From Acidobacteriota bacterium (GTDB lineage Bacteria > Acidobacteriota > Vicinamibacteria > Vicinamibacterales > SCN-69-37), in assembly GCA_024653875.1 (NCBI GenBank), contig JANLHE010000192.1:565-64564 (forward strand): DNA of 64,000 nucleotides, written 5' to 3'. Below the pieces are notes generated by a model that saw only the letters and a program-made list of their open reading frames with translations, did not search any database and was not told the DNA's origin. The position numbers and the translations under genes are program-made. Position 1 is the first letter of the stretch, and the number at the start of each line of letters is the position of its first letter. Below, in pieces: positions 1-33,777 of this stretch.

Positions 1-627
1 GAATACGAGATTCAGGGCTACGGCACCATCGACGATGCGATCGGCTGGTCCTACGAGATGCAGGGCCACGAGTTCTACGTCCTCGAGTTCCCGACCGCGA
101 AGAAAACCCACGTCTACGACGCGGCCACCAACACGTGGTGCCACCGGTCCTCGCGTGATGTCTCCAACGGCCTCGACCTGGCGTGGCGGCCGCGCTGGCA
201 CGTGTACGCCTTCGGCAAGCACATCGTGGGCGACTCCACCACGGGCCGCACCTTTGAACTGAGCCTCGACTACGCGACCGACGTGGACGGCCAGATGATC
301 CGGCGCGTCCGTCGGGCCCCGCATATCGGCCAGGAACTGATGATGCTCAAGTTCGGCATGTTCCGGCTGGACGTGGAAACCGGCGTGGGGATCTCGAGCG
401 GGCAGGGCAGCGCGCCCACGGCCATGCTCCGGTATTCCGATGATGGCGGCCGCACCTGGGGCCCCGAGCTCTGGCGCGAGGTCGGCGCCATCGGGGAATA
501 CAACGCCATCGTGCAGTGGGATCGCCTCGGCGCCGGGCGCCGGCGCGTGTTCGAAGTGTCGTTCACCGATCCGGTGCCGTGGCGCCTGATCGACGCCTAT
601 CTCACCGTCAGCCCGGGGAACAACTGA
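1..627 (+). CDS. Virion structural protein, C-terminal part (5' end outside window), Asp-box/BNR motif
   Basis: Frame 1 is open from nt 1 into track ORF 58..627 and has high GC3. YSDDGGRTWG fits the S-x-D-x-G-x-T-W Asp-box of beta-propeller folds. First gene of a + strand virion operon. Confidence 0.5.
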   Translation, partial: EYEIQGYGTIDDAIGWSYEMQGHEFYVLEFPTAKKTHVYDAATNTWCHRSSRDVSNGLDLAWRPRWHVYAFGKHIVGDSTTGRTFELSLDYATDVDGQMIRRVRRAPHIGQELMMLKFGMFRLDVETGVGISSGQGSAPTAMLRYSDDGGRTWGPELWREVGAIGEYNAIVQWDRLGAGRRRVFEVSFTDPVPWRLIDAYLTVSPGNN

Positions 628-1151
628 TGGCGGCGCTCACCTCTCCTCCCGGCGATTCCCCGCTCCTCTCGGACGTGGCAGGACGGTCCTGGTCTGCGAC
701 GTCCTCGGTGGCCTCCCGCCCGATGCACCGGGAGTGGTTGCGCTGGATCACACTGCTGCTGGCGATGGTCAACGTGTCGTCGCTGCGCCAAGGTGTGAGC
801 ACACTGACCGCGCAGGCCGCCTCGATTGCCGCCACCGCGATCCCCTTGGCGCCCAATGCCGCGCTGGCGACCTCGGACGGTCGGTATCGGGTGCTGGTCT
901 ATGCCCGCGTGACGCGCGCGGCGACCACGAGCAGTTCCTTGGCCGTGACGATCGGTTGGACCGATGGCGGGATCGCGTGCACCAAGGCGATCTCGGCCGT
1001 GACCGGCAACACCACGGCAACAGTCCTCCAGGAGCAGGTTGTGATCCGGGCCGACAAGGGGACGACGATTAATTACTCAACAACCTACGCATCCGTAGGC
1101 GGCGTTGTGATGACTTACAGCCTAGACGTCGTCGCGGAGGTCGTGCCGTGA
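627..1151 (+). CDS. Hypothetical virion-associated protein (174 aa)
   Basis: ATG at 627 overlaps the upstream stop (TGATG) and is in frame with track ORF 516..1151. Ala/Thr/Ser-rich, with no motif I recognise. Confidence 0.45.
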   Translation: MAALTSPPGDSPLLSDVAGRSWSATSSVASRPMHREWLRWITLLLAMVNVSSLRQGVSTLTAQAASIAATAIPLAPNAALATSDGRYRVLVYARVTRAATTSSSLAVTIGWTDGGIACTKAISAVTGNTTATVLQEQVVIRADKGTTINYSTTYASVGGVVMTYSLDVVAEVVP

Positions 1152-1195
1152 GCGCCCTTCTTTGTTTTCTGCTGGTGCGTAAGGAGTAGTCACCC

Positions 1196-2182
1196 ATGTT
1201 GGACCTGTTTAATCTTCCAGAGATTCCCAATCTCCCACCGGTGACGTTGGCAGTAGCCTGGGTTCTTCCGGCGATCGGCCTTGGCTTGTCGGCCATCACA
1301 TCCTTGTTCGGCGCTAAGAAGTCCTCCGATGCCTCCAAGAAGGCCGCGGCCGCCCAGAGTGCCGCTGCGGACAGGGCTGCGATCGAAATCAGCAAGCGGT
1401 ACGACGAGTCCCGCGCGCTGATGGATCCCTACGTGAAGAACGGAGGCGCGGCGAACGACCTCATGGGACGAATGATGAGTCCTGGTGGTGGCGGCCTTGG
1501 CGCGTATCAAAGCACAAGGTGGGGGAACACTCCTCAGACGCCCCCGATGCAGAACACCAGCGCGCCGGCTCAGTCGGGCGGTCAGTCGCCGGACGCGTGG
1601 ATGGGCGCACGAAGCGCGTCCGTGTCTGGCGGACCTATCGGCAGTGGCAACCGAGCCTTGGAACCGCAAGGCCGCATGAGTGAGATGCGCGCGATGATGG
1701 GCGACAACTCAGACATGGCTAATGGGGCCGCGCCTGGTGGCGAGATGCCGCGGTCGTGGGGCGCGCCTGGCGACGTCGGTGGCGCAGCCGGCGCGGCGAT
1801 GCGCGCGAGGGCGACCCCGTATCAGAGATCACAAGGTGGTGGTGCCCCGATGCCGTCCGGTGGAGACATTCCGCAGTCGTGGCTCGACAACCCGACCGAT
1901 CCGTCTGGGCGTCCGTATCCCAGAAACCCAGGCACGGCAGCTCTTGGCGCTCGTGTGCAGGGCCGCGAATACAACACACCCTTCGGCGTGTCAGGCGGCG
2001 GCTCTGGTGGTGGTGCTCCGATGCCGCAGTCGTGGCGCGGCGCGCCCATTTCCGGCGGCGGCGCCCCGATGCAAGGCCCTGGTGGCGCGCCGGAAATTGA
2101 TCCAGCCACGGGCCGGCCGATTGGCCCCCAGCGGTATCAGCCCTATCAAGGAAGGATGGGCGCACTTTCTCGGAGGGCGTAA
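1196..2182 (+). CDS. Gly/Pro/Met-rich low-complexity protein with N-terminal TM helix; probable internal virion/ejection protein
   Basis: AAGGAG SD upstream of the ATG. Hydrophobic helix VTLAVAWVLPAIGLGLSAITSLFG. Repeated GGGAPMP and PQSW peptides. Confidence 0.5.
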   Translation: MLDLFNLPEIPNLPPVTLAVAWVLPAIGLGLSAITSLFGAKKSSDASKKAAAAQSAAADRAAIEISKRYDESRALMDPYVKNGGAANDLMGRMMSPGGGGLGAYQSTRWGNTPQTPPMQNTSAPAQSGGQSPDAWMGARSASVSGGPIGSGNRALEPQGRMSEMRAMMGDNSDMANGAAPGGEMPRSWGAPGDVGGAAGAAMRARATPYQRSQGGGAPMPSGGDIPQSWLDNPTDPSGRPYPRNPGTAALGARVQGREYNTPFGVSGGGSGGGAPMPQSWRGAPISGGGAPMQGPGGAPEIDPATGRPIGPQRYQPYQGRMGALSRRA

Positions 2183-2185
2183 CCG

Positions 2186-5100
2186 ATGCCAAACCCTAAC
2201 TTCGACGAAGACAAAGGCATCGGTACCTTTGATCCGATGAATCCGCGAGGTCCGCAGACTATGGATCCCGGGATGAGCACGCCTACGCCGCTCTCATGGG
2301 GCGCCAGCGGGCCGGGCAATGCGTCCCTGGGGCCGGCGCCCGCAGGCGGAACCGACACCATGGGCTACTTCCTCACGCCGTGGACGGGCAAGTTTGACTC
2401 CTCGAAGTACGGCGGGGGGGGTGGCGGCGCGTATCCCACGCTGCCCTCGTTCAACTTCGGCGCGTTCACGCCGAGCAACTACAACGCCCAGAAGTTCAAC
2501 GCGTCGGGGGAGTTCAAGCCCCAGACGTCGAACTTCAAAGGGTCGCGCCTGAGTGCGCCGCAGGGCTTCCAGTCGCCGAACACGGGCTTCATGGGGGGGT
2601 TGACGCAGCGGGCGCCGTCGCAGGCCGCGCGAGGATTCCAACAGGCGTCAGTCACACAGCAACAGCCGAATCGGCCCGCGCCGGTGAAGCCAGTCAACCC
2701 CATGGGATCCAAGGCGCCTGGATCGCCAGACCCCTTCCAGGGTAATGGCGTGTGGACTGGCGACGGGTGGGTGCCCAAAGGCCATCCCCTGGCCGAACCC
2801 GTGTTGCAGAAGCAGCAACAGTACGACGAGGCCATGCGCACGTACGAGACGGATCTGGCCGCGTACAACACCCCCGCGCCGGTCGCCGCGCCTCAGCCAG
2901 CCGCCCTGAATCCTGTCCGTGCAGAGGTTCAGCCAGTCGATCCCCGACAGGAAGGCCCTCCATCAACGCGCCCTGGCGGCTTGACGCAGCGCGCGACCGA
3001 CACGTTTCAAGGCGCGCGCCTTGACACACCAGACGCGTTCGCCGGCGGCCCGAACTTCTCGTACGACAACTTTGAGGGGGGACCGGACTATCAGGCCGAA
3101 CGGTTTGGTCCGGCCGCGCAGTTTGCCGGCGGCGATCGGCTGTCCGTAGACAGGTTCAACCAGGGCCCGGACTTTCAGCCGACCGACGCCTACCGCGCGG
3201 AACGGTATGACCCGGGATCGGAGTTCTCGGCCAGTACCGGTCCGCTCGAGCTCGACCGCATGAACGCGGCCCGCTTTGACAGCGGCCAGCAGCCCTATAC
3301 GGCCGAGCGGGTGACCGGAGGCCAGGACTTCAATGCCCAGACGGGTCGCTTGGCGTTAGGCCGCTATGCCGGACGCGCGGACTTCACCGGTGGCCCGGGC
3401 GCCGACACGCCACTCGCGCTTGATCGCTTCGCCCAGGAACGGCTGTCGGATCGGCCGGACTTCGAGGTGCCCAGCTACGCGGAGGCCGAAAACGATCCGG
3501 CCTTCCAGTTCCGCCTCAAGATGGCGAATCAGCAGATCCAGAACTCGGCGGCAGCGAAGGGATCGCTCCGGTCCGTGAACACCATGAAGGGCCTGATGGA
3601 CTACGCGCAGGACGCGGCGTCCCAGGAATACGACAAGGTGTACGGGCGCCGGAAGGGCGAGTACGACACGGCCACGCAGAACGCCCAGAGCACGTACGCC
3701 GCCAACCAGCAGGAGCGGATGGGCGGGTTCGACCGCAACAATCAGGCGGCGCTCAACGAAGGCACGATCAACTTCGACCGCAACGCGCAGGTCTTTGATC
3801 GCAACGTGTCACAGGACATGGCCCGCTACGACCGCGATGTGGCCGCGACCGGGGCCGAGTACGAAGCCGACTACGGCCGGGAACTGGACACGTTTGACCG
3901 GAACGAGGCGCGCCGATTGGGCGAGTTTGACCGCAATGCCGCGGCGACGCGCGACCAGTCCGCGATGCGCTTCGACCAGGCGGCCGGCACGTATGACCGC
4001 AACATCGCGGCCGATCTGGCGTCCTATGACCGGAATACCGCCGCCGATGCGGCGGAAACGGCCGACGCCTACGGGCGCGAAACCGACACGTTCGACCGGA
4101 ACCAGGCGCAGCGCGCCGGGGAGTTCGACCGAAACAGTGAAGCCGCACGTGCCGAGAACGAGATTGCCTATGGGCGCTCGTCCAGTGAATACGACCGAGA
4201 CACGACGAATCGGCTGGCTGAATTTGACCGCAACGCGCAGGCGGGCATCCTCGAAAACCAGACCGCTTATGACCGGTCCATGGGCGAGTTCGGCGTCAAT
4301 GAGGACAGCCGACGGGCCTCCTACGACCGCGAGGCCGCCGCCGCCCGGGATGAGAGCACGATCAACTTCGACCGACGCGCCGCCACCGACGCCACCAACT
4401 ACAACCGCGCGCTGACCACGAACGACTTGAACTACACGCGGAACGCCAGCGAATACGATCGGAAGGTCGCCAACGACCTGGCTATCAATGAGGCGAATTA
4501 CGGCCGTGGCGCCTCCGAGTTCGACCGCAACTTCGGGAACGCATTCAACATCGACCAATCCCTGTACGACCGTGCCGCGTCCGAATACGACCGCGACTTC
4601 TCGCAGAACATGGCGGTAGATGAGACCAACTACGGGCGTGGATCCTCCGAGAACGACCGGGACTTCGGCCGCGAGTTCGATATCTACCAGGGCAATTACA
4701 CGAACGAGCTCAACGCGTTCGGGGCCAACAGTGGGGCGTCGCAGGCGGCGGCCGGACTTAACTGGCAGATCGATCAGGGCCGGTACGACCGTAACTATCA
4801 GGATGCGCTGACCCGGTACGGGATGGACCGCGATGCGGCCATGGGCGCGTACAGCGCGGGGCAGTCTGGCGCGAATCAGGAGTACAACCGCGCGCTCAAT
4901 GACTACGAGCGTGAGCGGGATGAGTACTGGAAGCAGCAGGACATCCAGTACGGGCGCGTCTACGACCAGCAACGGTTGGGCTACGACGCCTCCAGCCAGG
5001 CCGCCGGGTACGCGACCGGCTACGGTCGTGACCAAGCCAACAACGCCTACGACCGGGGCAACGCGGAGGCGTCCGGCTACATGGGCAGAGCCAACGCGTG

Positions 5101-5230
5101 GAACCGAGGCGCGCAGGGCGTCGGCGACGCCGCGCTGACGGCCGGGATGTACGCCGCGACACGGCCTGGGCAGACACCGCCGCCGCCACAAACCACGCTG
5201 CCACCGCCGCCGCCATACAGAGGGCCATAG
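2186..5230 (+). CDS. 1014-aa repeat protein (aromatic-D-R punctuated 7/11/15-residue modules); probable internal virion protein
   Basis: The ATG lies 3 nt after the upstream stop. The long ORF has high GC3. The central third is built of FDRN/YDRN/YGR-initiated modules (see repeat 3893-4387). Confidence 0.6.
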   Translation: MPNPNFDEDKGIGTFDPMNPRGPQTMDPGMSTPTPLSWGASGPGNASLGPAPAGGTDTMGYFLTPWTGKFDSSKYGGGGGGAYPTLPSFNFGAFTPSNYNAQKFNASGEFKPQTSNFKGSRLSAPQGFQSPNTGFMGGLTQRAPSQAARGFQQASVTQQQPNRPAPVKPVNPMGSKAPGSPDPFQGNGVWTGDGWVPKGHPLAEPVLQKQQQYDEAMRTYETDLAAYNTPAPVAAPQPAALNPVRAEVQPVDPRQEGPPSTRPGGLTQRATDTFQGARLDTPDAFAGGPNFSYDNFEGGPDYQAERFGPAAQFAGGDRLSVDRFNQGPDFQPTDAYRAERYDPGSEFSASTGPLELDRMNAARFDSGQQPYTAERVTGGQDFNAQTGRLALGRYAGRADFTGGPGADTPLALDRFAQERLSDRPDFEVPSYAEAENDPAFQFRLKMANQQIQNSAAAKGSLRSVNTMKGLMDYAQDAASQEYDKVYGRRKGEYDTATQNAQSTYAANQQERMGGFDRNNQAALNEGTINFDRNAQVFDRNVSQDMARYDRDVAATGAEYEADYGRELDTFDRNEARRLGEFDRNAAATRDQSAMRFDQAAGTYDRNIAADLASYDRNTAADAAETADAYGRETDTFDRNQAQRAGEFDRNSEAARAENEIAYGRSSSEYDRDTTNRLAEFDRNAQAGILENQTAYDRSMGEFGVNEDSRRASYDREAAAARDESTINFDRRAATDATNYNRALTTNDLNYTRNASEYDRKVANDLAINEANYGRGASEFDRNFGNAFNIDQSLYDRAASEYDRDFSQNMAVDETNYGRGSSENDRDFGREFDIYQGNYTNELNAFGANSGASQAAAGLNWQIDQGRYDRNYQDALTRYGMDRDAAMGAYSAGQSGANQEYNRALNDYERERDEYWKQQDIQYGRVYDQQRLGYDASSQAAGYATGYGRDQANNAYDRGNAEASGYMGRANAWNRGAQGVGDAALTAGMYAATRPGQTPPPPQTTLPPPPPYRGP
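3893..4387 (+). repeat. Five in-phase 33-residue (99-nt) tandem repeats, each 11+15+7 residues, inside CDS 2186-5230
   Basis: The units read FDRNEARRLGE/FDRNAAATRDQSAMR/FDQAAGT, then YDRNIAADLAS/YDRNTAADAAETADA/YGRETDT, and so on for five units. More degenerate 7/15-residue modules flank them from about 3600 to about 4900. Confidence 0.8.
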
Positions 5231-5232
5231 AC

Positions 5233-6969
5233 ATGCCACTCGACTACAGCATCCCGCTTCAGGGCCAAGTGGCCCAGTTCGAACCCCTAAAGATCATGGG
5301 CGACATGACGCGCCTGCACGCCCAGCGGCAGGAGAACGAGATCAATCAGATGCGTATGGGGGAGTTCACCCGCGAGCGCACGATGAAGGACGCCACGATG
5401 AAGGCGCTGCAGGGATCTGGCGGCGACCCGAGCAAGGCCATCAGCACGCTCCGATCCCAAGGCTACTGGGAAGCGGCGGACAGCATCGACAAAACACTCC
5501 GCGAGAACCGCAAGGCGATGGCCGAAGAAGTCAAGACCCAGAACGCCAACCGGGCCGATGGGCTCGGACAAGTCACACAGATCATGCAGGCGGTCAAGTC
5601 CGCCGATGGCTACAAGGCCGTGCTGCCGACCGTGCGCTCGATTCTTGAGAAGACCGATCCGAACCTATTGTCGCAGGTTAAGGACGAGTACGATCCTGAG
5701 TTCGTCTCACAAGCGACGACATGGGGGATGAAGGCCAGCGAGTATGCGACGATCCGCAAGGAAGCGGCCGAAGCGTTGGAGAAGCTCGCCGAACAGCCGC
5801 TGAAGGAGATCGAGCGGCACAACAAGTATCTCGCCGAGGGCGCGAAATACCTCTCCACGGTGGACACGCCCGAGGAATGGACGGACACGATCAACGGCAT
5901 GCACGAGATGGGCTTCCCGGCCGCGACGCTCGAAATGCTAGGGCATCAGTTGACACCCGACAACGTGGAACAGGTCAAGTTGCTGGCCGGAGGCAAACAG
6001 CTGGAACCGGGCACGTTCGGCAGTTACCTGACGCAGTTGGCGAAGGAACGGAAGGTGGACGTGACCGACCTGAGCACGCAAACGATCGAGGGCGCGCGCC
6101 AGCGGTGGTCCGCATCCGACAACATGCCCCGAGGGGAAGCCGTGCAACCGGGCACGTTCCAGTCGTTCGTGCGTGCGAAAGCGAAGGAACTCGGCGTCGC
6201 GCCAAGTGCGCTGAACAGCGAGCAGCAGTTGGGGATCCGCAACGCGTGGGGCGCTGAAGGTGCGTCCCTGGCGCAGATCGGCGCGGCCGAACGGTGGAAG
6301 GAAGATCAACTCGCGCGTATCCGCAGAGAGCGCGCGGCCGATCTCAGCCAGTCAGTGCCTGCCGAGTTCTGGGATGGGGAAATGCGACGGGTCGAGGAAT
6401 CGTACCGGAAGCAGTTGCCCGCTGGCGGCGCGCCGGCGGCGCCTCGTAGCGGCGGTTCTCCGATTGGCCCATTGCCGGACATCTTCCAGTCTCAGCCGTC
6501 GCGTGTGGCGCCGATGCAGATGCCTGGACCGGTGCGTGGGCTCCCTGGTGGAGGGGGACCGCCCCAGGGCGGCGTGAATTTAGGATCGTTGTCTGGCCGC
6601 GGCCCGGCACCCTCCGGGCCTCCACCGCAGGCCCAACCGCTTCAGCGGCCTCAGATGTCCGCGCCACGTCCGAGTGGCCCGCCGGCGCCGCCGATGAGCG
6701 CCCAGGTGGACACGACGCGCATGGGATCGTTGAGCGCGCCGCCCGCGCCAGCGCGCCCGTTCGCTCCGGTCCCGCAGTCGCCCCCGATGCGACCGGAACC
6801 GTCGAGCCCGCGCGCCGCCGCGCCAGCCGCGGCGCCGTCCGCGCCGGACCAGATAGTTCGTTTGTTGGAGAAGCGCGCGCCAGGGCAATATGACCTGGCT
6901 GATGGCAGTTCCTGGTTCAAAGATCCGACAGGATCGATTCGCCAACTCAAACCTGCCGGCCGCCGATAA
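5233..6969 (+). CDS. Hypothetical 578-aa protein, helical N-part and Pro-rich C-part; probable internal virion protein
   Basis: The ATG at 5233 lies 3 nt after the upstream TAG and is in frame with track ORF 5098..6969. The C-terminal 170 aa are rich in P/A/G/S. Confidence 0.5.
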   Translation: MPLDYSIPLQGQVAQFEPLKIMGDMTRLHAQRQENEINQMRMGEFTRERTMKDATMKALQGSGGDPSKAISTLRSQGYWEAADSIDKTLRENRKAMAEEVKTQNANRADGLGQVTQIMQAVKSADGYKAVLPTVRSILEKTDPNLLSQVKDEYDPEFVSQATTWGMKASEYATIRKEAAEALEKLAEQPLKEIERHNKYLAEGAKYLSTVDTPEEWTDTINGMHEMGFPAATLEMLGHQLTPDNVEQVKLLAGGKQLEPGTFGSYLTQLAKERKVDVTDLSTQTIEGARQRWSASDNMPRGEAVQPGTFQSFVRAKAKELGVAPSALNSEQQLGIRNAWGAEGASLAQIGAAERWKEDQLARIRRERAADLSQSVPAEFWDGEMRRVEESYRKQLPAGGAPAAPRSGGSPIGPLPDIFQSQPSRVAPMQMPGPVRGLPGGGGPPQGGVNLGSLSGRGPAPSGPPPQAQPLQRPQMSAPRPSGPPAPPMSAQVDTTRMGSLSAPPAPARPFAPVPQSPPMRPEPSSPRAAAPAAAPSAPDQIVRLLEKRAPGQYDLADGSSWFKDPTGSIRQLKPAGRR

Positions 6970-6981
6970 GGACGTTTCCTG

Positions 6982-9900
6982 ATGGCGTTCCAGAACTTCG
7001 GCCTGTTGGGCTCGACGATGGGGGGCCTCACCCGTCGTCTGTCCGCACGTACGCCGACTACCTCACGGCTGACGCCGTTCAAGCCGGTCTCGTCGCATGA
7101 CGACGAGGAGGACGATCCCTACCAGATCGTGCGGTTCAAGCCGGTGGCCAGCCATACGCAGGAACCGCCCGAAGAAGAGGACCGCTTCCAGATCACGAAC
7201 TTCACACCGCTGGGCCAGATGACACCGGCGCCGAGTCATCGCGTGGACCCGTTGGCCCTCCTCAAGATTGAGCCGAACGTCGCGGCCACCAAGCAGACCG
7301 ATCAGGACGACACCGGCGACCTTGGCGCGGCCTGGAAGCGGTTCCAGACAAAGTTCCCGTCTGCCGCGCAGGCGATTGGGTATGTGCGCTTCGGCGATCC
7401 CGCCCTGATGGACAAGAAGAAAGTAGACGGCTGGGTCAACTCTGAGCGCGGCATTGAAATCAACCCCAGCCGACTGTCAAGGGATTCCGATCTGGAATCG
7501 TTGATCGCGCACGAGGTGACACATCTACTGCGTGACGACGGGGACGCCGAAGGGCGCGCCAACGCTATCGAGAAGGCCTACAAAGTCTCAATGCTCCCTA
7601 CGATGCGGCCCGTGAGTTCGCACGGCGCCTCCACAAAGCCGAGCACAACCAGGACGCCGATTTCCAACAAGGATGATCCGCTCCGGGTTGTGAACTTTGT
7701 GCCATTCGAGCGCAATCCCATAGCGATCGGACCCGCGCAGCCACGGCCGATGTCCATGTCGGACCTGATGCGCGCGGAGATGAACAAGGCGCCGCTTCAA
7801 GCTGGCGCCATAGTGGATCTGACGGTCCCTGACCGTGACCCCCATTTCGACGTAAGCGGGTCGCTGCCCATCAAGACACCGCAACGCCTGTACATGACGC
7901 CGGGAGCGAAGCCCGGCGATGATCCGACCTTCTCGCCGGAGATGCCGAAGCCTGACGCGCCCTTTACGCCAAAGGGCGCGAAGGTCCCAGAGATGCTCAG
8001 TCGCGGTGTCGTCTCAGGCGTGTCCTCGCTGGCGGCCGGCGCCGGCGGCATGCTGCAGGCGGTCGCTGCGGAGGGGAGCGCGGCGGAACGTCACGGCCAG
8101 GCGCTGGTCGAACTCGACAAGAAGATCCAGAAACTCGCCCGGCCGGCCGAACGCTACCTCGTCGATGTGTTCGAGAATCCGGAACTGGCGAAGGACCCGG
8201 AATGGTGGGCGTACACGGCCGGCACGACGTTGGGCTCCATGGTGGGATTCATGGTGCCCGCGCAGGCGGGAGCGATGATTGGGGGGCGCCTTGCGGTAGG
8301 GGCGGCGGCCCTGCTGAGTCGAACCGCTCAAGCCAGAGAGCTCTTTATGGGCACCGGCTTTGTGCTGGGCGGCGGCGTGGTTGAGGGTTTAATCGAAGGC
8401 GGAAGCGCGTTCAACGACGCGATCGCTGCCGGCAAGTCGAAAAAAGAAGCGGGCGAAATCGCGGCGTCTGTGGCGGCCTTGAACGTCCCGCTGATTGCCG
8501 GGACGGCCGGATTGGGCTACCTGCCGCAGTTGTTCAATGCCGGTGGGGCGAAGTCTGCCGCCAAGCGAACAATCCAGTGGTTCTCTGGCGGCATGATGGA
8601 ATCAGGGCAGGAGGTAGGACAGCAAGGGATCTCCAATCGGGCTGCTGGGCGTCCAATCACTGAAGGGATGGGCACGGCCGCTGTCGGAGGGTTCATCGGT
8701 GGCGGCGTGGCGGGTCCAACGATCGGTGCCATGAACACCGAGGACTCGAAGGCCAGCGCGCGCGGCACGCAGGACCCAGGCCAGACGCGGTTCTACGAGA
8801 ACATGACGGCGAACCTGATGACGCCCCCGCGGCCGCCGTCTGGCCCGACCTCGCCTGGGCCTGTGGCGCCGAGCGTCGCACCCACCCCAGCCGCCCCAGA
8901 GATCGTCACCTTCACACCGGCCGACAAGGTGAAGGAACCAGCAGTTTCGCCGGATGTTTCCCGTGGAACGTCACCTGATCCGGCAGTCCTGCAGCAGCAG
9001 GCCGAGCGGTTCAGCGATCTGCGGGCCTTGGAAGCGCAACTCAAGGACACGAACAGCCCGAAGCGCCGGCAGGAGATCGAGTTCGAACTGACCGGCATCC
9101 GGCGCCATTACGAGGACACCTACCAGGCGATTGAGCAGGCCGGCGTGGATCCGGTGCAGGTCCGGCACACGGTGGAGCAGGGGCAGCCCGAGGCGCCGTC
9201 GGAGCCCTACAGTTACTCGACCACGCAGTTCAACCTACCGGAACCGGTGGCCGAGCGCGTACTGGACTTGGGCCGGAAGATTCCTGATGTGGACCTGGCC
9301 GAGGATGGCCGGGAAACCGAACCGCACCTGACGGTGAAGTACGGCCTACACACCGAGGACGTGGAGGAGGTCCGTGCGGCGCTGGCCGACATGAAGCCGT
9401 TCAAGGTGAAGCTGGGCGCGACGTCGTTCTTTCCGAATGGGGAGTCAGATTCCGGCGACGTGCTGAAGGTGGACGTTTCTTCCGCGTACTTGAGCCTGCT
9501 GAACAAGCGGTTGGCGAAGGCCCTGGACCACTCGGACACGAAAGCGTACAGCCCGCACGTGACCATCGCGTACCTCAAGGCGGGACGGGGCGAGGCCTAC
9601 ACGAACGACGACGCCCTGAAGGGCACCGAGATCCTCGTGGACCGGATCACGTTTGGCGGCAAAAATGGCCAGCGGGTCGAGATTCCCCTAGGTACGCAGG
9701 CGCAGCCAGTGCCACCTCAAGAGTTTCAAACTGGACAGCAGGCGGCTAAGGAAGAAATCGCTCTATCGGATCAACAATGGAAGGCTGCCACTGATCGGTG
9801 GGTCGCAGCGAGAAGAGACTTGGAGTCTGGAGCTATTTCCCCAGCGCAATTCGAGGCTGAACAAGCACGCTTCTTGGCATTGACAGACGATTTATCCAGA

Positions 9901-18900: not shown

Positions 18901-20841
18901 GTGCCGTTCCAGACGAAGTTCGGCGAGGTGCCTGGCGGGTACTTCCCCATCAAATACGACCCTGAAGCGGACCCGAAGGCGTACGCGCACAACGTCAAAG
19001 AACTCGCCGAGCAGATGATGCGAGGCCAGACCACGTCGAGCACCACCCGACGTGGCTTCACTCAGGCCAGACAAGAGGTCGTCAAGAACCGCCGGATGCG
19101 TCTGGACTTCAGCACGATCTGGCAGCACACCGCTGACGTGATTCACGACCTGACACATCACGAGATGTTGATCGACGTGAACCGCATCCTGCGGCACCCC
19201 AAGGTGGCTACGGCAATCCGTCAGCACTACGGGATGCCGGTGTACCGCGAACTCCAGGCGTCCCTCCAGGACATTGCCGCCGGGGACGTGCCGGTCCAGC
19301 ACCAGGGGGAGCGCGCCCTTGAGTGGCTCCGACAGGGTACATCGATCGCGCGTATGGGCTGGAACCTGATGACCTCGGCGGTGCAGCCGTTAGGCCTCAC
19401 GGTGTCCGTGGTTCGTATCGGTCCGAAATGGGTGGCGCGTGGGGTCGCCCGCTGGCTCGGCGATGCCGCGCGCATGGAGAACACCGTCTCGCAGATACAC
19501 AAGCAAAGTGCGTTTATGCGCCTGCGTCACAAGACGCTGGAACGCGAAATCCGCGAGATCCAGAGCCGGATTCAGCCACGTGGGGCTTGGGCCTTGTCTG
19601 CGCTCGGCCGCAGCGTGGCCGGCGGCGCTGGCGCTCGTGCGGGCCATGAGATTGCGTCGAAGTACGCCGCAGTTGAGGACTCGTATTTCTGGTTTATTTC
19701 GCGGGCTCAGATGGTGGCTGATATCCCGACGTGGCTGGGCGGGTATGAGAAGGCCCGGGCGCAGGGCAACGATGAGAAGCGATCCGTGGCGTTGGCGGAC
19801 CAGGCCGTTATCGACTCGCAGGGGTCTGGGCACATCAAGGACATGGCGCACTCTCAGCGCGGCACGCCGTCGCTGAAGTTGTTTACCCAGTTCATGGGCT
19901 ACTTCAGCGTGGTCTACAACCAGGGGTCTGAGGCCATCGGCCGCACACGGTTGAGGAACCCGGCATCGATCGGACGTCTCGCCGTGGACCTGTTGATGCT
20001 CTACACGGTCCCGATGGTCTTGGAAGAGGCGCTGCGGGCCGCCATTTCCGGTGGCGATGACGACGATGACGACTTGCTGGTCAAATTTGCCAGAAGTCAG
20101 GCGGCGTACTTCTTGAATACCGTCGTGTTCGCTCGGGAATTGGGCGGCGCGGTAGAAGGGTATCGGTATAGCGGGCCTGCCGGTGGAGGCGTGTTTGATG
20201 AAGCCGCCAGACTCATCACGCAGATCGGACAGGGCAAAGTGGACGACCCACTGGTGAAGTCACTCAACAACACGGCGGGTATCGTGTTCCACTATCCGGC
20301 GACGCAAGTGGAGCGGCTAGTGCGGGTTGCGCTGGCGCTCAAGGATGGCACCGCTACCCCGTCGATGCTGTTTCGGGCCACGGCCGGCAACGCCTCTGAA
20401 CGGCCCGACTTGTCGGCCGCGGCTCGCACGGTGCGATCGGGTGAGCAGCAGCAGTCGAAGCGCGCCCAAGAGGCCGTGGCGGCCTCGGTGGAAGCGTTCT
20501 TCCAGTTGCCACCGGCACGGCAAACACAGGATGAGATTATCCAGCGCACCAGGGCATTAGCTAAGGCGCTGTATGCCGATCCGGACGTGCGAGACGACAA
20601 GTTCAGCGACTTGCTCACTAATCACCGGGTGGGCGTCGCGCGCGGCCAGAAAGACCAAGTGCTCAATGCTGTGCTGACGGCTGGCAGCAACGCGCAGAAA
20701 TTGGCGGTCCTGGCGGCGGCTAGCGAGAAGATGTCGCCAGACGACTTCAGGGCGTGGGTGAAGAAAACCAGGCCACTCCAGGTGGTCTCAAGCACCGTGC
20801 TCGACCAAGCGATGGCAGCGGTGAACGCGCGCGCGCGATAG
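6982..20841 (+). CDS. Giant polyvalent protein (4,619 aa) with multiple enzymatic modules; probably virion-packaged effector
   Basis: Uninterrupted ORF. Motifs read in order: HEVTH (nt 7510), a hydrophobic block (7990-8735), HLTV and HVTI (9325, 9556), GGPGSGKST (11191), YHGT/GSYFT (12496, 12568), EEIQSDWH, HELAH (14761) and HEYGH (16429). Confidence 0.8.
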   Translation: MAFQNFGLLGSTMGGLTRRLSARTPTTSRLTPFKPVSSHDDEEDDPYQIVRFKPVASHTQEPPEEEDRFQITNFTPLGQMTPAPSHRVDPLALLKIEPNVAATKQTDQDDTGDLGAAWKRFQTKFPSAAQAIGYVRFGDPALMDKKKVDGWVNSERGIEINPSRLSRDSDLESLIAHEVTHLLRDDGDAEGRANAIEKAYKVSMLPTMRPVSSHGASTKPSTTRTPISNKDDPLRVVNFVPFERNPIAIGPAQPRPMSMSDLMRAEMNKAPLQAGAIVDLTVPDRDPHFDVSGSLPIKTPQRLYMTPGAKPGDDPTFSPEMPKPDAPFTPKGAKVPEMLSRGVVSGVSSLAAGAGGMLQAVAAEGSAAERHGQALVELDKKIQKLARPAERYLVDVFENPELAKDPEWWAYTAGTTLGSMVGFMVPAQAGAMIGGRLAVGAAALLSRTAQARELFMGTGFVLGGGVVEGLIEGGSAFNDAIAAGKSKKEAGEIAASVAALNVPLIAGTAGLGYLPQLFNAGGAKSAAKRTIQWFSGGMMESGQEVGQQGISNRAAGRPITEGMGTAAVGGFIGGGVAGPTIGAMNTEDSKASARGTQDPGQTRFYENMTANLMTPPRPPSGPTSPGPVAPSVAPTPAAPEIVTFTPADKVKEPAVSPDVSRGTSPDPAVLQQQAERFSDLRALEAQLKDTNSPKRRQEIEFELTGIRRHYEDTYQAIEQAGVDPVQVRHTVEQGQPEAPSEPYSYSTTQFNLPEPVAERVLDLGRKIPDVDLAEDGRETEPHLTVKYGLHTEDVEEVRAALADMKPFKVKLGATSFFPNGESDSGDVLKVDVSSAYLSLLNKRLAKALDHSDTKAYSPHVTIAYLKAGRGEAYTNDDALKGTEILVDRITFGGKNGQRVEIPLGTQAQPVPPQEFQTGQQAAKEEIALSDQQWKAATDRWVAARRDLESGAISPAQFEAEQARFLALTDDLSRANEAPLGAPALATPFAQMSREEQNVAVSPLVPDAASVEPSTTQPEWPVVELPRTDKAQSAPQAKPGRFLVDAKAGTMATAPKGARPGIGQVLVRYSDTGKQTVLQVGKKVAPRDLRKLKALERPVPPVVAPTVPASQREHFDQLLKDARQNGYEGDDKTLEQLYLQKLDEARLANDGATLASEDADSSRELLVAISKMGGIGLEAEGEAGMRGELETMLEGLNRHAGIIRRGARAGQRLPASFRRAGGLPGAPNIITRSGGRPLDTVLESIHEDPRWEHRFESLSDFTQAIDDAIRIETGTTAAPAAAYGPRLDATLEMLGVAPGTDWWEPGRIIVTPHRQGAADEANERAAIRGLNARRDTLQQDYEAQFGRVVNDDNMRELLGAHSPDRRWGNLNAVRSSSGAAVRQVFRQILDEPMDPTRDAVLLTAGGPGSGKSTSAGEDPSFFAVFDSTLHNYEQAKALIEQVKASGRVAVVRYVRRNPVEAFMDGVLTRALDPSNGRPVSIKSHAEKHVEGRETIARLIGEYADDLQVPIVLAESTPSGLKPIDDLESAVEEARVYNDVDALRADIETALRREIASGRQGLTPELAARLGLRPEDRPAVAGDGQPEARRGDQERPAEGLQPAPLAADPTPVSAAPPVRSKAVSPARTEDILATGEIQPRLPGDVGAVRDQEVADAKLELKRADPDDFSLSAQAVDAGQPRLSEPDDSDSSPAYKAAYAAYETAHDRFQPFKQDYENRTISPDVYLREAKAFDAAKDALDAAERAERAARRAARKPAEAPRQSFSAKSLQSVFGITATEAEAAVAIAEAMDLDTDKILLTAGGVPGKGALEQPGQQGTKAFKKWFGRSVVVDTEGPRRVYHGTSGPKPISAFKESVSGLFGRGSYFTESAEDADNYAGNKLVKLKDGSVRTSGRSAIVPVYLQIEHPFEMDGRDTWQDLFEVVMGRRPKNDDAEMPSPAQARALQAAMVAQGHDGIVIKNFEANLTEDFTTHYVVFSPEQVKSATGNQGTFDPKNPNILYQEAPVNAPKLSKWYYSNISKALATWQPKGTAAQLLAHLQKFKGANEEAETIGFGAWLKSQEKVTRAEAQAWLGEHQIHVQDVVRRSRGTDDQQEARSERYMQALQVLERHNLDVASEEANDPPIALIHREERDDRGELKALIAEDIKALPQEAQDAWDVVEEQERLAASKDLKYAAYQTPGGTGYREVLLTLPASATRTVWRVIDRNNNHIIAKFDNYEEAAKLADEKDLAVSEKQDVPAKDTYQSSHWDEPNVLAHVRMNDREVDGQRVLFVEEIQSDWHPALRKHLAAKAAGQLTTKVPDAPFKGAGWKKLALKRALAMAAEGGYDGLAWTTGSMQQDRYDLSKQAHEISAFNRGDGTFDFMVRAKDTNRTHDISKVARDQVSEHIGKDLAERVLKQPAGEWQGYTGLDLKVGGQWAENLYDRELPNLANDIVRKYGVKAGTIELPNTNKVMAYSGPSNVTGDDLDKLIKVSRGLGNSTISPITGREAGHPVERASVTKQAQDIRAYMQAGHSFVEAMNTHGSPMMAGMVGGKMVDEDRGVSVHHLPLTQQMREDVRDNGLPLFQGAKAAVEFAEGGKAIIRALERPDVSSPAHELAHVARRFLLDRNVATEDRLGISDEDIATAETWAGAANGVWGREAEEKFARGFERYLQIGKAPTTKLQALFDKFATWLTDIYRDLKGSDIDVEISAPMQAVFDKLVTRRTAREQRDAAPERQSKPAPTKARASTPTPVSAEPVTGTGDAGAELTFNKRNRRRGGLTWEDVVGQNQTLRVSQTTKANVYPQPEYAALIDGGMEPVVAHIVKQVYDAIAVKPQTTAPTDADLQAYIAGVNRVMDGTLAWANNKDAIRKWANAQVRTARAMQGTPTSLSDLVDVPTLSLSVYPESKQGLSDALRNEARLIGGRRVLGALHAGYSETARATKAVAGGWPAKQEAWQRQGYKVVSSAEAVQVKTGERYVSGGKETVHYLEINRRGFHDVASAEAAEARKAAFKPWLLLKKSGRIEGEFDTKADAEDAARAAVKRESKAIDVRGTAVTEAERTGPPRREPGQNISSDVLLETFEFKGINFGNWLKGKGGNEAERQLHLNHAYDAFADMADILGIPPKAISLNGLLGVAFGAQGSGKNAAHFVPGVNEINLTRTQGAGTVAHEYGHALDHYFATQAGLAGYPEPFLTEHVSHPGTTGYNRAGGKRTAPDTLRPEIAEAFRVIVSSMNRVLESGAQAETRLLMAGTQALKSVNGWLGQIKRDFTSAGVAESAFDALAERIRTLDLGDGKVAVGNAQLSPAVAALRDLYKSAGGSRAYSLDSIKSLQSNVDYLAYLKSDAIAGRAHTPQTVSTDYSRQASALDQEKGGKAYWSTNLEKFARAFDAFVRDRLAARATRNTYLSRDGQPATWEPQGAERIAINEAFDTLIGEFQVTPDTNVLYQEAPPTASELEQIRARRAALVSELGATLRGRAGMGIDFDALELVVDIIKSYLDEGIVRFKDAALAFRRDYPMGADLDDYFESAWQEATGETHLVADALASPETETDIAVAPETALATKASELSKTRRTKQDVIDDLSDALKDLRQTIRSGGVQMREARVPYALIAATAKEQVAAAIVRDLRPAEALATVRPLVTKATEAAARGEFDKAGDLEHEALSALALYREQQRVVKDIDARVRRARLLGTKSAQQRLGLAGQEMYRAPVNAILDGYSFERFGRKALDKRASLLEFIEKATEENMPVDIPAAVREGANRVPYQELTVGEFVEVTDTLDHLLHLSGLKNRLLKSTSTRTFNEQMDDLAASIAAHSRGARRTALEPHLASNQIGRGMAGFAAWQRKLGSLIREMDGGKDGGPMWEAVMRPINASADDETVRQEAAAVAFADTNKTFTTDDKVDLSKPMEIPEIGDSLTRAARIIVALNWGNPGNQQRLMSGFDWSESQVQAILDTLTEKDWTFVKAVWAHINSYKAEIVAKQERVFGVAPEMIEGVPFQTKFGEVPGGYFPIKYDPEADPKAYAHNVKELAEQMMRGQTTSSTTRRGFTQARQEVVKNRRMRLDFSTIWQHTADVIHDLTHHEMLIDVNRILRHPKVATAIRQHYGMPVYRELQASLQDIAAGDVPVQHQGERALEWLRQGTSIARMGWNLMTSAVQPLGLTVSVVRIGPKWVARGVARWLGDAARMENTVSQIHKQSAFMRLRHKTLEREIREIQSRIQPRGAWALSALGRSVAGGAGARAGHEIASKYAAVEDSYFWFISRAQMVADIPTWLGGYEKARAQGNDEKRSVALADQAVIDSQGSGHIKDMAHSQRGTPSLKLFTQFMGYFSVVYNQGSEAIGRTRLRNPASIGRLAVDLLMLYTVPMVLEEALRAAISGGDDDDDDLLVKFARSQAAYFLNTVVFARELGGAVEGYRYSGPAGGGVFDEAARLITQIGQGKVDDPLVKSLNNTAGIVFHYPATQVERLVRVALALKDGTATPSMLFRATAGNASERPDLSAAARTVRSGEQQQSKRAQEAVAASVEAFFQLPPARQTQDEIIQRTRALAKALYADPDVRDDKFSDLLTNHRVGVARGQKDQVLNAVLTAGSNAQKLAVLAAASEKMSPDDFRAWVKKTRPLQVVSSTVLDQAMAAVNARAR

Positions 20842-32551: not shown

Positions 32552-32720
32552 ACATCTCCACGGCTGAAGCCGGGAGCTTTCCACCTAGGCCGCGAGGCCT
32601 GGCAGTTCTGAGGCTGGTTTACAGGCAGCCTGAGCCCGAGACGCGATGTTCCGGGCGGCGTTGAAATCGGCGGATATGGAGTGGTCGCAATGCAGACAGC
32701 GAAATTCGGCTTGGCTCTTT
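32540..32720 (-). ncRNA. Candidate omega-RNA (reRNA) overlapping the tnpB 3' end; extent is a guess
   Basis: By analogy with TnpB systems. The hairpin CTCC(A)CGGC-TGAA-GCCGGGAG at 32555-32575 lies 10 nt beyond the tnpB stop. No covariance model was run. Confidence 0.3.
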
Positions 32721-33673
32721 CGGTTGCCCTTCTCACAGTGGCCGCATTGACTACAGGTGCGACTCGTGTTGCGGGGATCGACGGCGACGACACGCACGCC
32801 CGCCAGTGCCGCCTTGTACTCGACGAAGGCCCTGAGTTGTGCAAAGGCCCAGCCGCCCTGTCGGTTGCGTTGCTTCCGCCGAACCGTGGCCCGCTCGCGG
32901 ATATGCGTCAAGTCTTCCACGCCGATCCCGCGCGCCGTGTCTTTGGCGGCCTGAACAATCTGTTTACTGATGCAGTGGTTCTCGTGCCGTCGGAATCTCG
33001 ACTCCTTCTTTGCGATTCGCTTCAGTTTCTTTTTTGCTCCCCGCGTGTTCCGTCGTTGCAAGGCGCGTCGTTGCTTCGTGTGCTTCCGCCGGACGCGCTC
33101 GACAGCCTCGCCGGTGTGCGTCGTGCCGTCACTGTCGGTCGCCAAGTTCACGATGCCAAGATCCACGCCAAGGAAATCAGCGGGTTCAATCGGCGCACCG
33201 TCAGGAACAGTAATGCTCGCGTAGAGGTAGAACTGCCCATCGCGCAGGACCAGATCGACCTGTCCCTTCATGCGGTCAAAGCGTTGCCGTTGGTACTCGC
33301 CGTAGATCAAGGGCACCAACTCCCGGCCGTCCAATGTCAGCAGGCTCACGGTGTCCATGCCTTTGAAGGACATCAAACGTTCGTCATACGTCATCGCGCC
33401 ATCGGGCCGGAAGACGGGGCAGACCGTCTTGTCACGGGCGAAGTACTCGACGGCCTTGCCGATGGCGCGCACCGCCATTTGACTCGACAGTCCGAACTTC
33501 TCCCGGAGTTGGTAGTACGTCAGCCGATGGATGCTCGGTTGACTCCGCAGGCCCGCCTCGAAGCCGACGCGCGCGGCATAGGTGGCGGCGGCGTTGAAGG
33601 CGCGCATCGTGGCCCGCAATTGCGCGGCTTGCTTAGCGGTCGGCAGCAGGCGCAATTGCAAAGTCAGAACCAT
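32585..33673 (-). CDS. tnpB: TnpB RNA-guided endonuclease (RuvC-like plus zinc ribbon), 362 aa
   Basis: Internal Met (MVLTLQLRLLPT) of track ORF 32585..33826. RuvC contexts GVDLGIVNLATDSDG, IGVEDL and SADFNAARNI. Zinc ribbon CSQCGHC...CLHCDH. Confidence 0.85.
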   Translation of the reverse strand: MVLTLQLRLLPTAKQAAQLRATMRAFNAAATYAARVGFEAGLRSQPSIHRLTYYQLREKFGLSSQMAVRAIGKAVEYFARDKTVCPVFRPDGAMTYDERLMSFKGMDTVSLLTLDGRELVPLIYGEYQRQRFDRMKGQVDLVLRDGQFYLYASITVPDGAPIEPADFLGVDLGIVNLATDSDGTTHTGEAVERVRRKHTKQRRALQRRNTRGAKKKLKRIAKKESRFRRHENHCISKQIVQAAKDTARGIGVEDLTHIRERATVRRKQRNRQGGWAFAQLRAFVEYKAALAGVRVVAVDPRNTSRTCSQCGHCEKGNRKSQAEFRCLHCDHSISADFNAARNIASRAQAACKPASELPGLAA

Positions 33674-33679
33674 ACGGAT

Positions 33680-33709
33680 ATTGTAGGACTTATACTGTCC
33701 GTAAGTCAA
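33680..33709 (-). promoter_or_regulatory. Near-consensus sigma70-type promoter for tnpB: TTGACT-N18-TACAAT
   Basis: On the minus strand, TTGACT is at 33709-33704 and TACAAT at 33685-33680. The -10 ends 6 nt before the tnpB ATG (33673), which implies a very short leader. Confidence 0.5.
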
Positions 33710-33777
33710 CCCACCGACCGAGAGGGGCGACTCTCCTCCCCACAGCTTAAGCTGGGGGTTTCCGTGTCGTCCATGCG

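Follow-up and report, generated by a model that had tools for sequence, protein, structure and literature searches.

A giant ORF next to genes of the internal-virion type

The window, i.e. the whole 64,000-nucleotide stretch of DNA analysed, harbors a giant ORF preceded by three ORFs on the same strand (Table 1). The second of these upstream ORFs matched phrog_598, annotated as 'DNA ejection'. A fragment of a head-closure/tail gene was found upstream of the giant ORF, and the large terminase subunit is encoded within the window. Homologues of the upstream ORFs stand in the same order before the giant ORF in a viral contig, and the gene order is syntenic with the structural cassette of BPP-1.

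Table 1. Position of the giant ORF, its modules and the upstream ORFs in the window.
Feature	Position	Strand	Remarks
Upstream ORFs 1196-2182, 2186-5230 and 5098-6969	1196..6969	+	Positioned like the BPP-1 internal virion/ejection genes bbp12 and bbp11
Giant ORF	6982..20841	+	Single uninterrupted ORF, 4,619 aa; polyvalent, putative Bbp10-like internal virion protein carrying the 2H module
Pro/Ala/Ser/Thr-rich linker, aa 601-660	8782..8961	+	Composition scan; ~80 aa upstream of the 2H domain (start aa 742)
2H phosphoesterase domain, aa 742-904	9205..9693	+	PF13563, AlphaFold2 model, Foldseek, phrog_755 (E 1.8e-7)
Catalytic motif 1, H782-L-T784, in GRExxPHxTVKYGLH	9325..9333	+	Aligns with Acb1 H44/T46
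Catalytic motif 2, H859-V-T861, in YxPHxTIAYLK	9556..9564	+	Aligns with Acb1 YxPHITxxY
Zeta-toxin-like P-loop kinase module, aa 1306-1655	10897..11946	+	Pfam Zeta_toxin, 38 bits (excised region); Walker A at aa 1404
ART-PolyVal ADP-ribosyltransferase module, aa 1833-1989	12478..12948	+	Pfam PF18760, E 1.8e-22
LPD1 (large polyvalent protein-associated domain 1), aa 3351-3415	17032..17226	+	Pfam PF18796, E 7.6e-13
C-terminal conserved region, aa 3595-4463	17764..20370	+	tblastn; common to Bbp10-type internal virion proteins

By its domain content, the giant protein qualifies as a "polyvalent protein". It combines several disparate domains including signature ones (ART-PolyVal, LPD1, Zeta_toxin and 2H; Pfam), and a motif scan revealed three HExxH motifs. 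These polyvalent modules are shuffled among relatives of the protein. A near-identity DNA search with the giant ORF against GenBank phages gave no match, the whole protein matched nothing in the PDB by phmmer, and PADLOC returned nothing. Comparison by tblastn revealed 40% identity between aa 3595-4463 and gp040 of Caulobacter phage SR18 (E 2e-164) and 37% identity between the C-terminus and BPP-1 bbp10 (E 1e-132), whose record carries the note 'part of the structural protein cassette'. The C-terminal region presumably anchors the giant protein in the virion and in the ejection apparatus.

Homology and gene position together suggest that the giant protein is probably delivered with the virion. 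Three observations argue for this: ART-PolyVal and LPD1 are signature domains of polyvalent proteins, the C-terminus resembles Bbp10 and SR18 gp040 from the structural cassette, and relatives of the 2H domain sit in giant ORFs. Among relatives of the module, Tunturi_5 gp321 is encoded between connector and tail genes. The first-pass annotation had taken the giant protein for a virion protein, and homology, synteny with the internal-virion cassette around BPP-1 Bbp10 and the polyvalent architecture back this assignment.

Sequence and predicted fold of the 2H domain

The same annotation had assigned a segment of the giant protein to the 2H phosphoesterase superfamily on the basis of two HxT motifs in beta-strand contexts. 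Translation of 9205-9693 confirmed both motifs exactly as described: it contains RETEPHLTVKYGLH and AYSPHVTIAYLK, the His codons begin at nt 9325 and 9556, and the spacing is 77 residues. The giant protein as a whole has seven HxT/S triplets and 83 His residues, which is about the number of triplets expected from composition. HxT motifs alone are therefore not significant, and the significance of the 2H call derives from the profile matches. Pfam PF13563 (2_5_RNA_ligase2) matched the domain at E 3.4e-14 with 53.6 bits (cut-off 27), and LigT_PEase (PF02834) also scored above threshold (29.3 bits, cut-off 23.3). TIGR02258 matched at E 4.7e-9, its 36.4 bits lying under the equivalog cut-off of 65.7. 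A phmmer search of the PDB with the module alone gave just a marginal CPDase match (E 1.4), and a family profile was needed for this comparison.

An AlphaFold2 model of aa 732-914, built on a 19-sequence alignment, reached a mean pLDDT of 91.2 and a pTM of 0.83. The 10-residue block means of confidence were high between query residues ~11 and ~170 and low at both ends of the segment. The secondary-structure elements extend over query residues 15-171 (aa 746-902, nt 9217-9687), so that the segment proposed initially coincides almost exactly with the folded domain, which is bounded by low-confidence or low-complexity sequence within the multi-enzyme protein. Both catalytic histidines begin beta-strands in the model (E51-58 and E128-134), in agreement with the predicted context. 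All 39 Foldseek matches in the PDB at E<=1e-3 were 2H enzymes with TM scores of about 0.5-0.63. They comprised TT0787/LigT, CPDases, YjcG, Usb1, AKAP18, Acb1 and viral 2'-5' PDEs.

Alignment of 246 relatives displayed a strongly conserved active site. H782, T784, P858 and H859 are invariant, G776, R777 and E778 are conserved to 95-99%, and Y856, T861, A863 and Y864 to at least 98% (T861 99%). The copy in the window keeps every position conserved to >=95%, and the clade-specific residues GRE, F817 and YxPHxTIAY are intact. We are thus almost certain that 9205-9693 encodes a 2H phosphoesterase with intact fold and active site. The domain is predicted to act as a metal-independent phosphoesterase.

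A clade of 2H domains in phage polyvalent proteins

The 2H domain of the window falls into a clade restricted to phage polyvalent proteins and corresponding solo proteins of phages. When grouped at 50% identity, the clade yields at least 6,795 clusters (E<=1e-3), mostly inside giant phage ORFs. Most of the best 150 of the 6,795 cluster representatives are 1,000-5,760 aa long, and 52 of 81 IMG/VR loci of relatives fall in ORFs of >=1,000 aa. A protein-pattern scan of genome contigs revealed only one relative, on a Kiloniellaceae MAG contig, and an exact 48-mer taken from the module occurred in neither the genome contigs nor the viral contigs. This clade was described by Iyer, Burroughs, Anand, de Souza and Aravind in 2017 (J Bacteriol, PMC5512222) in a study in which Bordetella and BPP-1 are unmentioned. 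The authors proposed that the 2H domains degrade the nucleotides of nucleotide-activated defence systems, or act as RNases (section 20 of PMC5512222). The idea of immune-nucleotide degradation, which also came up in the first-pass annotation, is thus not new. Our literature search found no published experimental test of any polyvalent-protein 2H domain.

The RNase proposal, given first in that study (PMC5512222), would place the module in the direction of Usb1/Mpn1, as an enzyme that cuts or trims host RNA, leaves a 2',3'-cyclic phosphate and stops host translation or defence RNA right after injection. Usb1 structures are indeed among the top Foldseek matches (E ~2e-5 to 4e-5), 2H domains are fused to MuF and portal domains as PBECR RNase domains are (PMC5512222), and in several relatives the 2H domain forms the C-terminus of a 600-900-aa protein, resembling toxin-type cargo. 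We nevertheless regard such a role as improbable. The module has no sequence affinity to Usb1, its Pfam, PHROG and PDB sequence matches being LigT, CPDase and Acb1; no factor that would shield phage RNA from such an RNase was found; and the motif signature in common with Acb1 points to small cyclic substrates.

The surroundings of the 2H module are diverse. There is no obligatory neighbour domain, and the largest neighbour cluster accounts for 11 of about 140 flanks. A fixed dyad of 2H and one neighbour was rejected, as an association with a Zeta-like kinase or a histidine phosphatase occurs in a minority only. Of 164 long relatives, 11 (~7%) have the kinase close to the 2H module, with a gap of 0-770 aa, and in another eight relatives the 2H module is flanked by a histidine-phosphatase module.

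These neighbours fit RNA or nucleotide end-processing equally well as immune-signal degradation and speak to that extent against the latter. The 2H domain might act on tRNA or mRNA cut by metal-independent host defence RNases (anticodon nucleases, HEPN/Abi effectors or Cas13-type) and open the resulting 2',3'-cyclic phosphate ends, and the Zeta-like kinase may phosphorylate the 5'-OH, comparable to the CPD and kinase modules of Trl1. The LigT/ThpR type of the top general models (PF13563, LigT_PEase and TIGR02258) and the LigT and CPDase structures among the best fold matches are consistent with end-healing. We consider it unlikely for several reasons. TIGR02258 stays below its equivalog cut-off, the kinase is confined to few relatives, and in the protein of the window it is 382 aa away from the 2H domain (P=0.18 on its own). 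The polyvalent 2H versions were never associated with RNA ligases (PMC5512222). Pfam detected neither an RNA ligase nor a Tpt1-type domain in the giant protein, scanning of 29 other ORFs of the window revealed none either, and tRNA genes are absent from the window. Moreover, bacterial RtcB ligates 2',3'-cyclic phosphate or 3'-phosphate ends directly, and 'healing' by a CPDase to a 2'-phosphate would hinder rather than help RtcB-type repair.

The ART-PolyVal module in the same polypeptide raises the question of an NAD/ADP-ribose role, in which the 2H domain would hydrolyse a product tied to the ART domain, such as ADP-ribose 1'',2''-cyclic phosphate or a similar compound. The plant CPDase acting on Appr>p matches well (1fsi, E 2.6e-4 with the profile; 1jh6 by fold), and Tunturi_5 gp321, which is annotated as a NUDIX hydrolase, has the same 2H module. 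On the other hand, ART-PolyVal belongs to protein-modifying ART clades and not to KptA/Tpt1 (PMC5512222), Pfam gave no Tpt1 match in the giant protein, and an ART region and 2H co-occur in only a handful of the best 150 relatives. Such a role is very improbable.

Relationship of the module to Acb1

Among 38,880 PHROGs the 2H module matched a single one, phrog_755, the family that holds T4 Acb1; the T4-type 57B/Acb1 and FBB1 Acb1 score 228 and 199 bits against it. The top PDB sequence match of the family profile was Acb1 of Burkholderia phage BCSR5 (9q2g, E 1.2e-4). An hhalign comparison of the 2H family with an Acb1 alignment gave a probability of 92.4% (E 5e-7) and spanned both motifs. Pfam Acb1 was matched at E<=0.01 by 17 of 19 close relatives, and three solo members of the clade pass its threshold with 30-37 bits and have Acb1 as their top match. 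The copy in the window scored 19.2 bits against Pfam Acb1 (PF23474), below the cut-off of 27; for reference, true Acb1 proteins reach 197-203 bits and BCSR5 Acb1 56 bits. The Pfam Acb1 matches of clade members end at about position 111-114 of the 144 profile positions and leave the C-terminal part unmatched.

The catalytic tetrad of Acb1 (T4 H44, T46, H113 and T115) is present in the window's copy according to both hhalign and MAFFT. Acb1 stacks the bases with the aromatic residues Y12, W74, F107 and W147 and contacts adenine through E141 (PMC9117128). Of these five positions only W74 is matched, by the invariant F817. At the position of F107 the window's copy has Lys854, and 66% of the clade has His. 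W147 and E141 have no Trp or Glu counterpart in the alignment, which is unreliable in the Y12 region. The conserved C-terminal segment of the clade, FxxKxGxxxxIPLG, is unlike the Acb1 lid, which shuts a pocket for a di- or trinucleotide. We therefore rejected filing the window's copy as Acb1, its score being sub-threshold and the lid residues absent, while some clade members formally pass.

In the Foldseek search of the PDB, Acb1 ranked behind LigT, CPDase and Usb1, and in a structure search of BFVD it appeared at ranks 24, 45 and 49 behind many generic phage 2H proteins. By predicted structure, the module thus stands at least as near to other phage 2H proteins as to Acb1.

Degradation of immune signals as possible function

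The best reading of the module is an Acb1-like degradation of immune nucleotides by a virion-delivered enzyme, to which we assign a probability of roughly 40%. We lean towards it because phrog_755 is the sole PHROG match, because hhalign links the families with a probability of 92% and because the motif signature is common to both. That Acb1 uses the 2H fold, as the first-pass annotation stated, is correct (Hobbs 2022, PMC9117128), and degradation of immune nucleotides by viral 2H PDEs has been demonstrated repeatedly (PMC9117128, PMC11410667).

According to this model, the giant protein would be packaged in the capsid and ejected together with the DNA, so that the enzyme would be inside the cell ahead of any phage gene expression. 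Catalysis by the two His-Thr pairs would be of the metal-independent acid-base type and proceed in two steps: attack of a ribose 2'-OH on the neighbouring phosphodiester, followed by hydrolysis of the 2',3'-cyclic phosphate formed. The likeliest substrates would be host cyclic di- or trinucleotides of the CBASS type or related 2'-5'/3'-5'-linked signalling oligonucleotides, and the module would resemble Acb1 in degrading immune signals but differ from it in the substrate lid. A phage particle usually contains only a few copies of its internal virion proteins, as in T7, and this low copy number may limit bulk degradation of a signal.

The range of substrates considered initially, which covered second messengers of CBASS, type III CRISPR and Thoeris-like pathways, was in part too broad. 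Thoeris signals (ADPR isomers) are not obvious 2H substrates. T4 Acb1 leaves cA4 uncleaved (PMC9117128).

A more far-reaching version, which we regard as speculative and rather unlikely, is that the whole polyvalent 2H clade and Acb1 are sister groups that differ in their lid. The enzymes of the clade would then enter the cell ready-made and degrade CBASS-type cyclic oligonucleotides from the very start of infection, perhaps also some whose ring size or linkage Acb1 is unable to cleave. If so, virion-borne polyvalent proteins would be the largest reservoir of anti-CBASS enzymes. If the module degrades immune second messengers, it would show that phages can carry a counter-measure in the particle, ahead of early gene expression, and Acb1-type evasion would no longer be confined to a few hundred T4-like genes but reach thousands of giant virion proteins. 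Both the architecture and the idea date from a 2017 publication, and viral 2H enzymology is well established. The window offers a further example and, with aa ~735-910, a clean construct, but no new concept.

Comparison with known systems

The polyvalent 2H proteins described by Iyer et al. (2017) are likewise giant, lie among virion genes and carry ART, LPD, kinase and metallopeptidase-type modules. Their clade likewise has solo phage counterparts and no linked RNA ligase. Nothing essential differs; the window adds a very large case with a Bbp10-type C-terminus from a BPP-1-like podophage.

Acb1 (T4 gp57B; Erwinia phage FBB1, 7T26/7T27; BCSR5, 9Q2G; PF23474, phrog_755) shares the 2H fold and the HxT/HxT tetrad with the module, as well as the motifs HxTxxY(G/S) and YxPHxTxxY, an aromatic residue at the W74 position and the same PHROG. 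Unlike Acb1, the module exhibits the additional conserved motifs STQ, GRE and KxGxGxxY. Furthermore, Acb1 is a soluble gene product of ~150 aa, whereas the module is embedded in a probable virion protein.

In structure, the module is matched best by the RNA 2',3'-cyclic phosphodiesterases LigT/ThpR (1IUH, 5LDI and 5H7E; Foldseek E 9e-7 to 1e-4, TM ~0.6). They also match PF13563 and PF02834 and have a similar domain length of ~165-185 aa, but identity to the module is only 16-19% and the module falls short of the TIGR02258 equivalog cut-off. LigT is a cellular housekeeping enzyme, whereas the module is probably virion-borne.

LigT-like PDEs of eukaryotic viruses (coronavirus ns2, the C-terminal domain of rotavirus VP3 and the avian poxvirus cGAMP PDE) degrade 2-5A or cGAMP (PMC11410667). 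They are also viral 2H enzymes, in some cases form part of a large polyprotein or multidomain protein (VP3, torovirus pp1a) and appear as fold matches. With 12-16% identity they are distant, they act in other hosts and on other signals, and they are not virion-ejected effectors.

The Rauchvirus internal virion proteins BPP-1 Bbp10 and SR18 gp040 are homologous to the C-terminal ~760-870 aa of the giant protein with 37-40% identity. They occupy the same place in the tail/internal-virion/tail-fibre cassette and have the module at aa 2563-2705 in common with it; SR18 gp040 also has its ART region. Unlike the giant protein of the window, both are ~2,000 aa long and devoid of the 2H module, neither being among the module's matches.

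A two-histidine phosphoesterase domain within a giant phage protein

The 2H module flagged by the first-pass annotation was confirmed as a real feature. Translation of its reading frame includes GRETEPHLTVKYGLH and KAYSPHVTIAYLK, which contain the two reported H-x-T motifs with His codons starting at nt 9325 and nt 9556, 77 residues apart. The whole giant protein has 83 histidines and seven HxT/S triplets; such triplets by themselves are of little meaning, and the weight rests on profile and fold evidence. The module scored 53.6 bits (E 3.4e-14) against Pfam PF13563 (2_5_RNA_ligase2; gathering score 27), 29.3 bits against PF02834 (LigT_PEase; threshold 23.3) and E 4.7e-9 against NCBIfam TIGR02258, the last under the equivalog cut-off. 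An AlphaFold2 model calculated from a 19-sequence alignment reached a mean pLDDT of 91.2 and a pTM of 0.83. Its secondary structure elements span aa 746-902, in agreement with the segment boundaries originally proposed, and both catalytic-motif histidines are located at beta-strand starts. Foldseek, recommended as a check in the first-pass annotation, returned 39 PDB matches at E<=1e-3. All 39 were 2H enzymes, including Thermus TT0787/LigT, Deinococcus and Arabidopsis CPDases, YjcG, Usb1, AKAP18, E. coli LigT, Acb1 and viral 2'-5' PDEs, and the assignment to the 2H fold is correct.

Coordinates of the giant ORF, its modules and further genes in the window
Feature	Position (nt)	Position (aa)	Strand	Evidence or remark
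Giant ORF, 4,619 aa	6982-20841		+	single uninterrupted ORF
HExxH motifs (three)	7510-7524, 14761-14775, 16429-16443	177, 2594, 3150	+	motif scan
Gly/Ala-rich region	8000-8780	~340-600		upstream of 2H; mildly hydrophobic
2H module	9205-9693	742-904	+	translation, profiles, predicted fold
Conserved module	~10279-10911	~1100-1310		between 2H and kinase; no Pfam or NCBIfam match
Zeta-toxin-like P-loop kinase module	10897-11946	1306-1655	+	Pfam; Walker A at aa 1404
ART-PolyVal		1833-1989	+	Pfam, E 1.8e-22
LPD1		3351-3415	+	Pfam
IS-type transposase	32585-33826		-	phrog_506, E 1e-45; opposite strand within otherwise phage-like region
O-like replication initiator	52214-53179			upstream of methyltransferase pair
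D12-class Dam-like DNA methyltransferase	53176-54054			adjacent to next gene
DNA methyltransferase, phrog_116 type	53960-55171			adjacent to preceding gene

Polyvalent proteins, giant multi-domain proteins of phages (Iyer et al. 2017, PMC5512222), have ART-PolyVal and LPD1 among their signature domains. A Pro-rich linker precedes the 2H module by ~80 aa. The Gly/Ala-rich region, in which one 19-residue window (aa 493-512) exceeds a Kyte-Doolittle value of 1.4, is co-conserved with the 2H module in two relatives (P0144 and P0020) and may represent membrane-inserting segments of an ejection protein. The conserved module between 2H and kinase also comes after 2H in at least six other giant proteins (P0025, P0053, P0080, P0109, P0160, P0162). 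The module around aa 2563-2705 recurs in Bbp10 of Bordetella phage BPP-1 (31% identity) and in other polyvalent proteins (52-58%). The HExxH motifs possibly belong to zincin-type peptidase modules processing the polyprotein.

The giant gene lies in a virion protein cassette

The C-terminal part of the giant protein (aa 3595-4463) is 40% identical to gp040 of Caulobacter phage SR18 (E 2e-164) and 37% identical to BPP-1 Bbp10. In BPP-1, the tail genes bbp14 and bbp13 are followed by bbp12 (internal virion protein), bbp11 (transglycosylase protein), bbp10 and the tail fibre gene, and the record describes bbp10 as "part of the structural protein cassette". The window has the same arrangement, with a head-closure/tail fragment and a 1,014-aa ORF matching a "DNA ejection" PHROG upstream of the giant ORF. 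On the viral contig L013, homologues of the window's three ORFs upstream of the giant gene precede a giant ORF of >3,997 aa, whose 2H module is 65% identical to that of the window and similarly positioned. Elsewhere, the window encodes a large terminase subunit, an O-like replication protein, DNA methyltransferases, DUF5131, an AAA ATPase and an IS transposase, while a search for tRNA genes within it found none. The window represents a podophage or prophage resembling BPP-1 (Rauchvirus-like), with a GC content of 62-66%. Because of the Bbp10-type homology and the gene position, we infer that the giant protein is packaged in the virion and ejected.

A 2H module (31% identity) also occurs in the 1,362-aa protein gp321 of the 309-kb Tunturiibacter phage Tunturi_5 (L093, 1483-5571). 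Its gene is flanked by head-tail connector and minor tail genes, so that gp321, incompletely annotated as 'MutT/NUDIX hydrolase', is a further polyvalent protein from a virion cassette.

The 2H clade is large and conserved

A word-indexed search yielded 18 relatives of 31-57% identity, all short solo proteins. When 1.84 billion cluster representatives were searched exhaustively with a profile, 6,795 proteins passed E<=1e-3, of which 2,879 also passed E<=1e-30; in the majority of the best 150, the module resides within proteins of 1,000-5,760 aa. The single pattern YxPHxTIAY gave at least 537 confirmed relatives among 600 IMG/VR stretches listed. In a sample of 80 IMG/VR loci kept and one MAG contig, 52 modules were located in ORFs of >=1,000 aa and 14 were solo. 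Apart from the 2H module, the giant protein of the window has little in common with the others, modules being shuffled among them.

In an alignment of 246 2H domains, H782, T784, G788, F817, P858 and H859 were invariant, and G776, R777, E778, D826, V827, Y856, T861, A863 and Y864 were at least 95% conserved. The copy in the window retains every one of these residues and deviates from the consensus only at less conserved positions, e.g. K854 (His in 66%) and G892 (Ser in 91%). The 2H domain thus evolves under purifying selection and is presumably catalytically active.

Possible functions of the 2H module

By analogy with the superfamily, we expect with confidence the same catalytic chemistry, in which the two His-Thr pairs would act on a ribose 2'-OH and the neighbouring phosphate by acid-base catalysis that requires no metal. 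Our best reading, at a probability of about 0.4, is an enzyme packaged in advance that breaks down immune oligonucleotides, either cyclic or 2'-5'/3'-5'-linked. The suggestion in the first-pass annotation that a virion-borne module destroys immune signals is a rediscovery: Iyer et al. 2017 (PMC5512222, section 20) described 2H domains both within polyvalent proteins and as phage proteins on their own, never saw linkage of these versions to RNA ligases, and therefore considered Usb1-like RNases or degraders of 2'-5' oligoadenylate more likely. Architecture and functional idea alike had thus been published before. Later work, including cleavage of cGAMP by avian poxvirus 2H PDEs (PMC11410667), strengthens this prediction. 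The first-pass annotation extended the idea to type III CRISPR and Thoeris; this is unsupported, since Acb1 leaves cA4 uncut and the ADPR-derived signals of Thoeris are no evident substrates of 2H enzymes. The Usb1-like RNase, the other proposal of Iyer et al., is doubtful in our estimate.

RNA end-healing, which we rate slightly above the RNase but still as unlikely, finds some support in a recurring Zeta-like kinase: of 164 long relatives, 11 have one near the 2H module. The gap was 0-770 aa in all 11, with either module coming first, and the combined p is roughly 1.6e-9, without correction for shared ancestry; the 382 aa separating the two in the window are not significant alone. Kinase and 2H may constitute a mobile pair. 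In another eight relatives (P0045, P0059, P0069, P0111, P0116, P0121, P0138, P0139), a histidine phosphatase module (Pfam His_Phos_1) directly adjoins 2H on either side and could remove the terminal phosphate left after the 2H reaction. However, neither a ligase nor Tpt1 was found in the giant protein or in 29 other ORFs scanned in the window, and RtcB does not need healed ends. A function coupled through Appr>p to the activity of ART is weakly supported and very improbable.

A literature search for an experimental test of any polyvalent-protein 2H domain found no paper. The module in the window offers a clean way to test a prediction, now eight years old, that covers thousands of phage proteins.

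Relationship to Acb1

Among 38,880 PHROGs, the module matched only phrog_755 (E 1.8e-7), to which T4-type 57B and FBB1 Acb1, anti-CBASS proteins, score 228 and 199 bits. The top match of the family profile among PDB sequences was Acb1 of Burkholderia phage BCSR5 (9q2g, E 1.2e-4), ranking above plant CPDase, FBB1 Acb1 and PH0099. Alignment of the family with five Acb1 sequences by hhalign covered both motifs (probability 92.4%, E 5e-7). In a joint alignment H, T and Y-x-x-H-x-T-x-x-Y are invariant in both groups, which also share an aromatic residue at the position of Acb1 W74. For the solo clade members P0010, P0013 and P0012, Pfam Acb1 (PF23474) is the top match with 30-37 bits (threshold 27). 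These three, some of which lie on contigs of 327-516 kb, are 40-43% identical to the module of the window, which stays under that threshold. The line drawn by Pfam to separate Acb1 from 2_5_RNA_ligase2 runs through the clade.

Strict Acb1 identity was rejected for the copy in the window. It scores 19.2 bits against Pfam Acb1, under the threshold, compared with ~200 for true Acb1 proteins. Acb1 ranks after LigT, CPDase and Usb1 among PDB structures and at positions 24, 45 and 49 in BFVD, after many generic phage 2H proteins; the top BFVD match, a fragment, derives from a different giant phage protein (query-normalised TM 0.83). Moreover, the C-terminal lid tryptophan (W147) and the adenine-reading glutamate (E141) of Acb1 have no equivalent, and the position of F107 is occupied by lysine. 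Taking both sides together, we therefore treat the module as related to Acb1, and possibly Acb1-like in action, but not as a strict member of that family.
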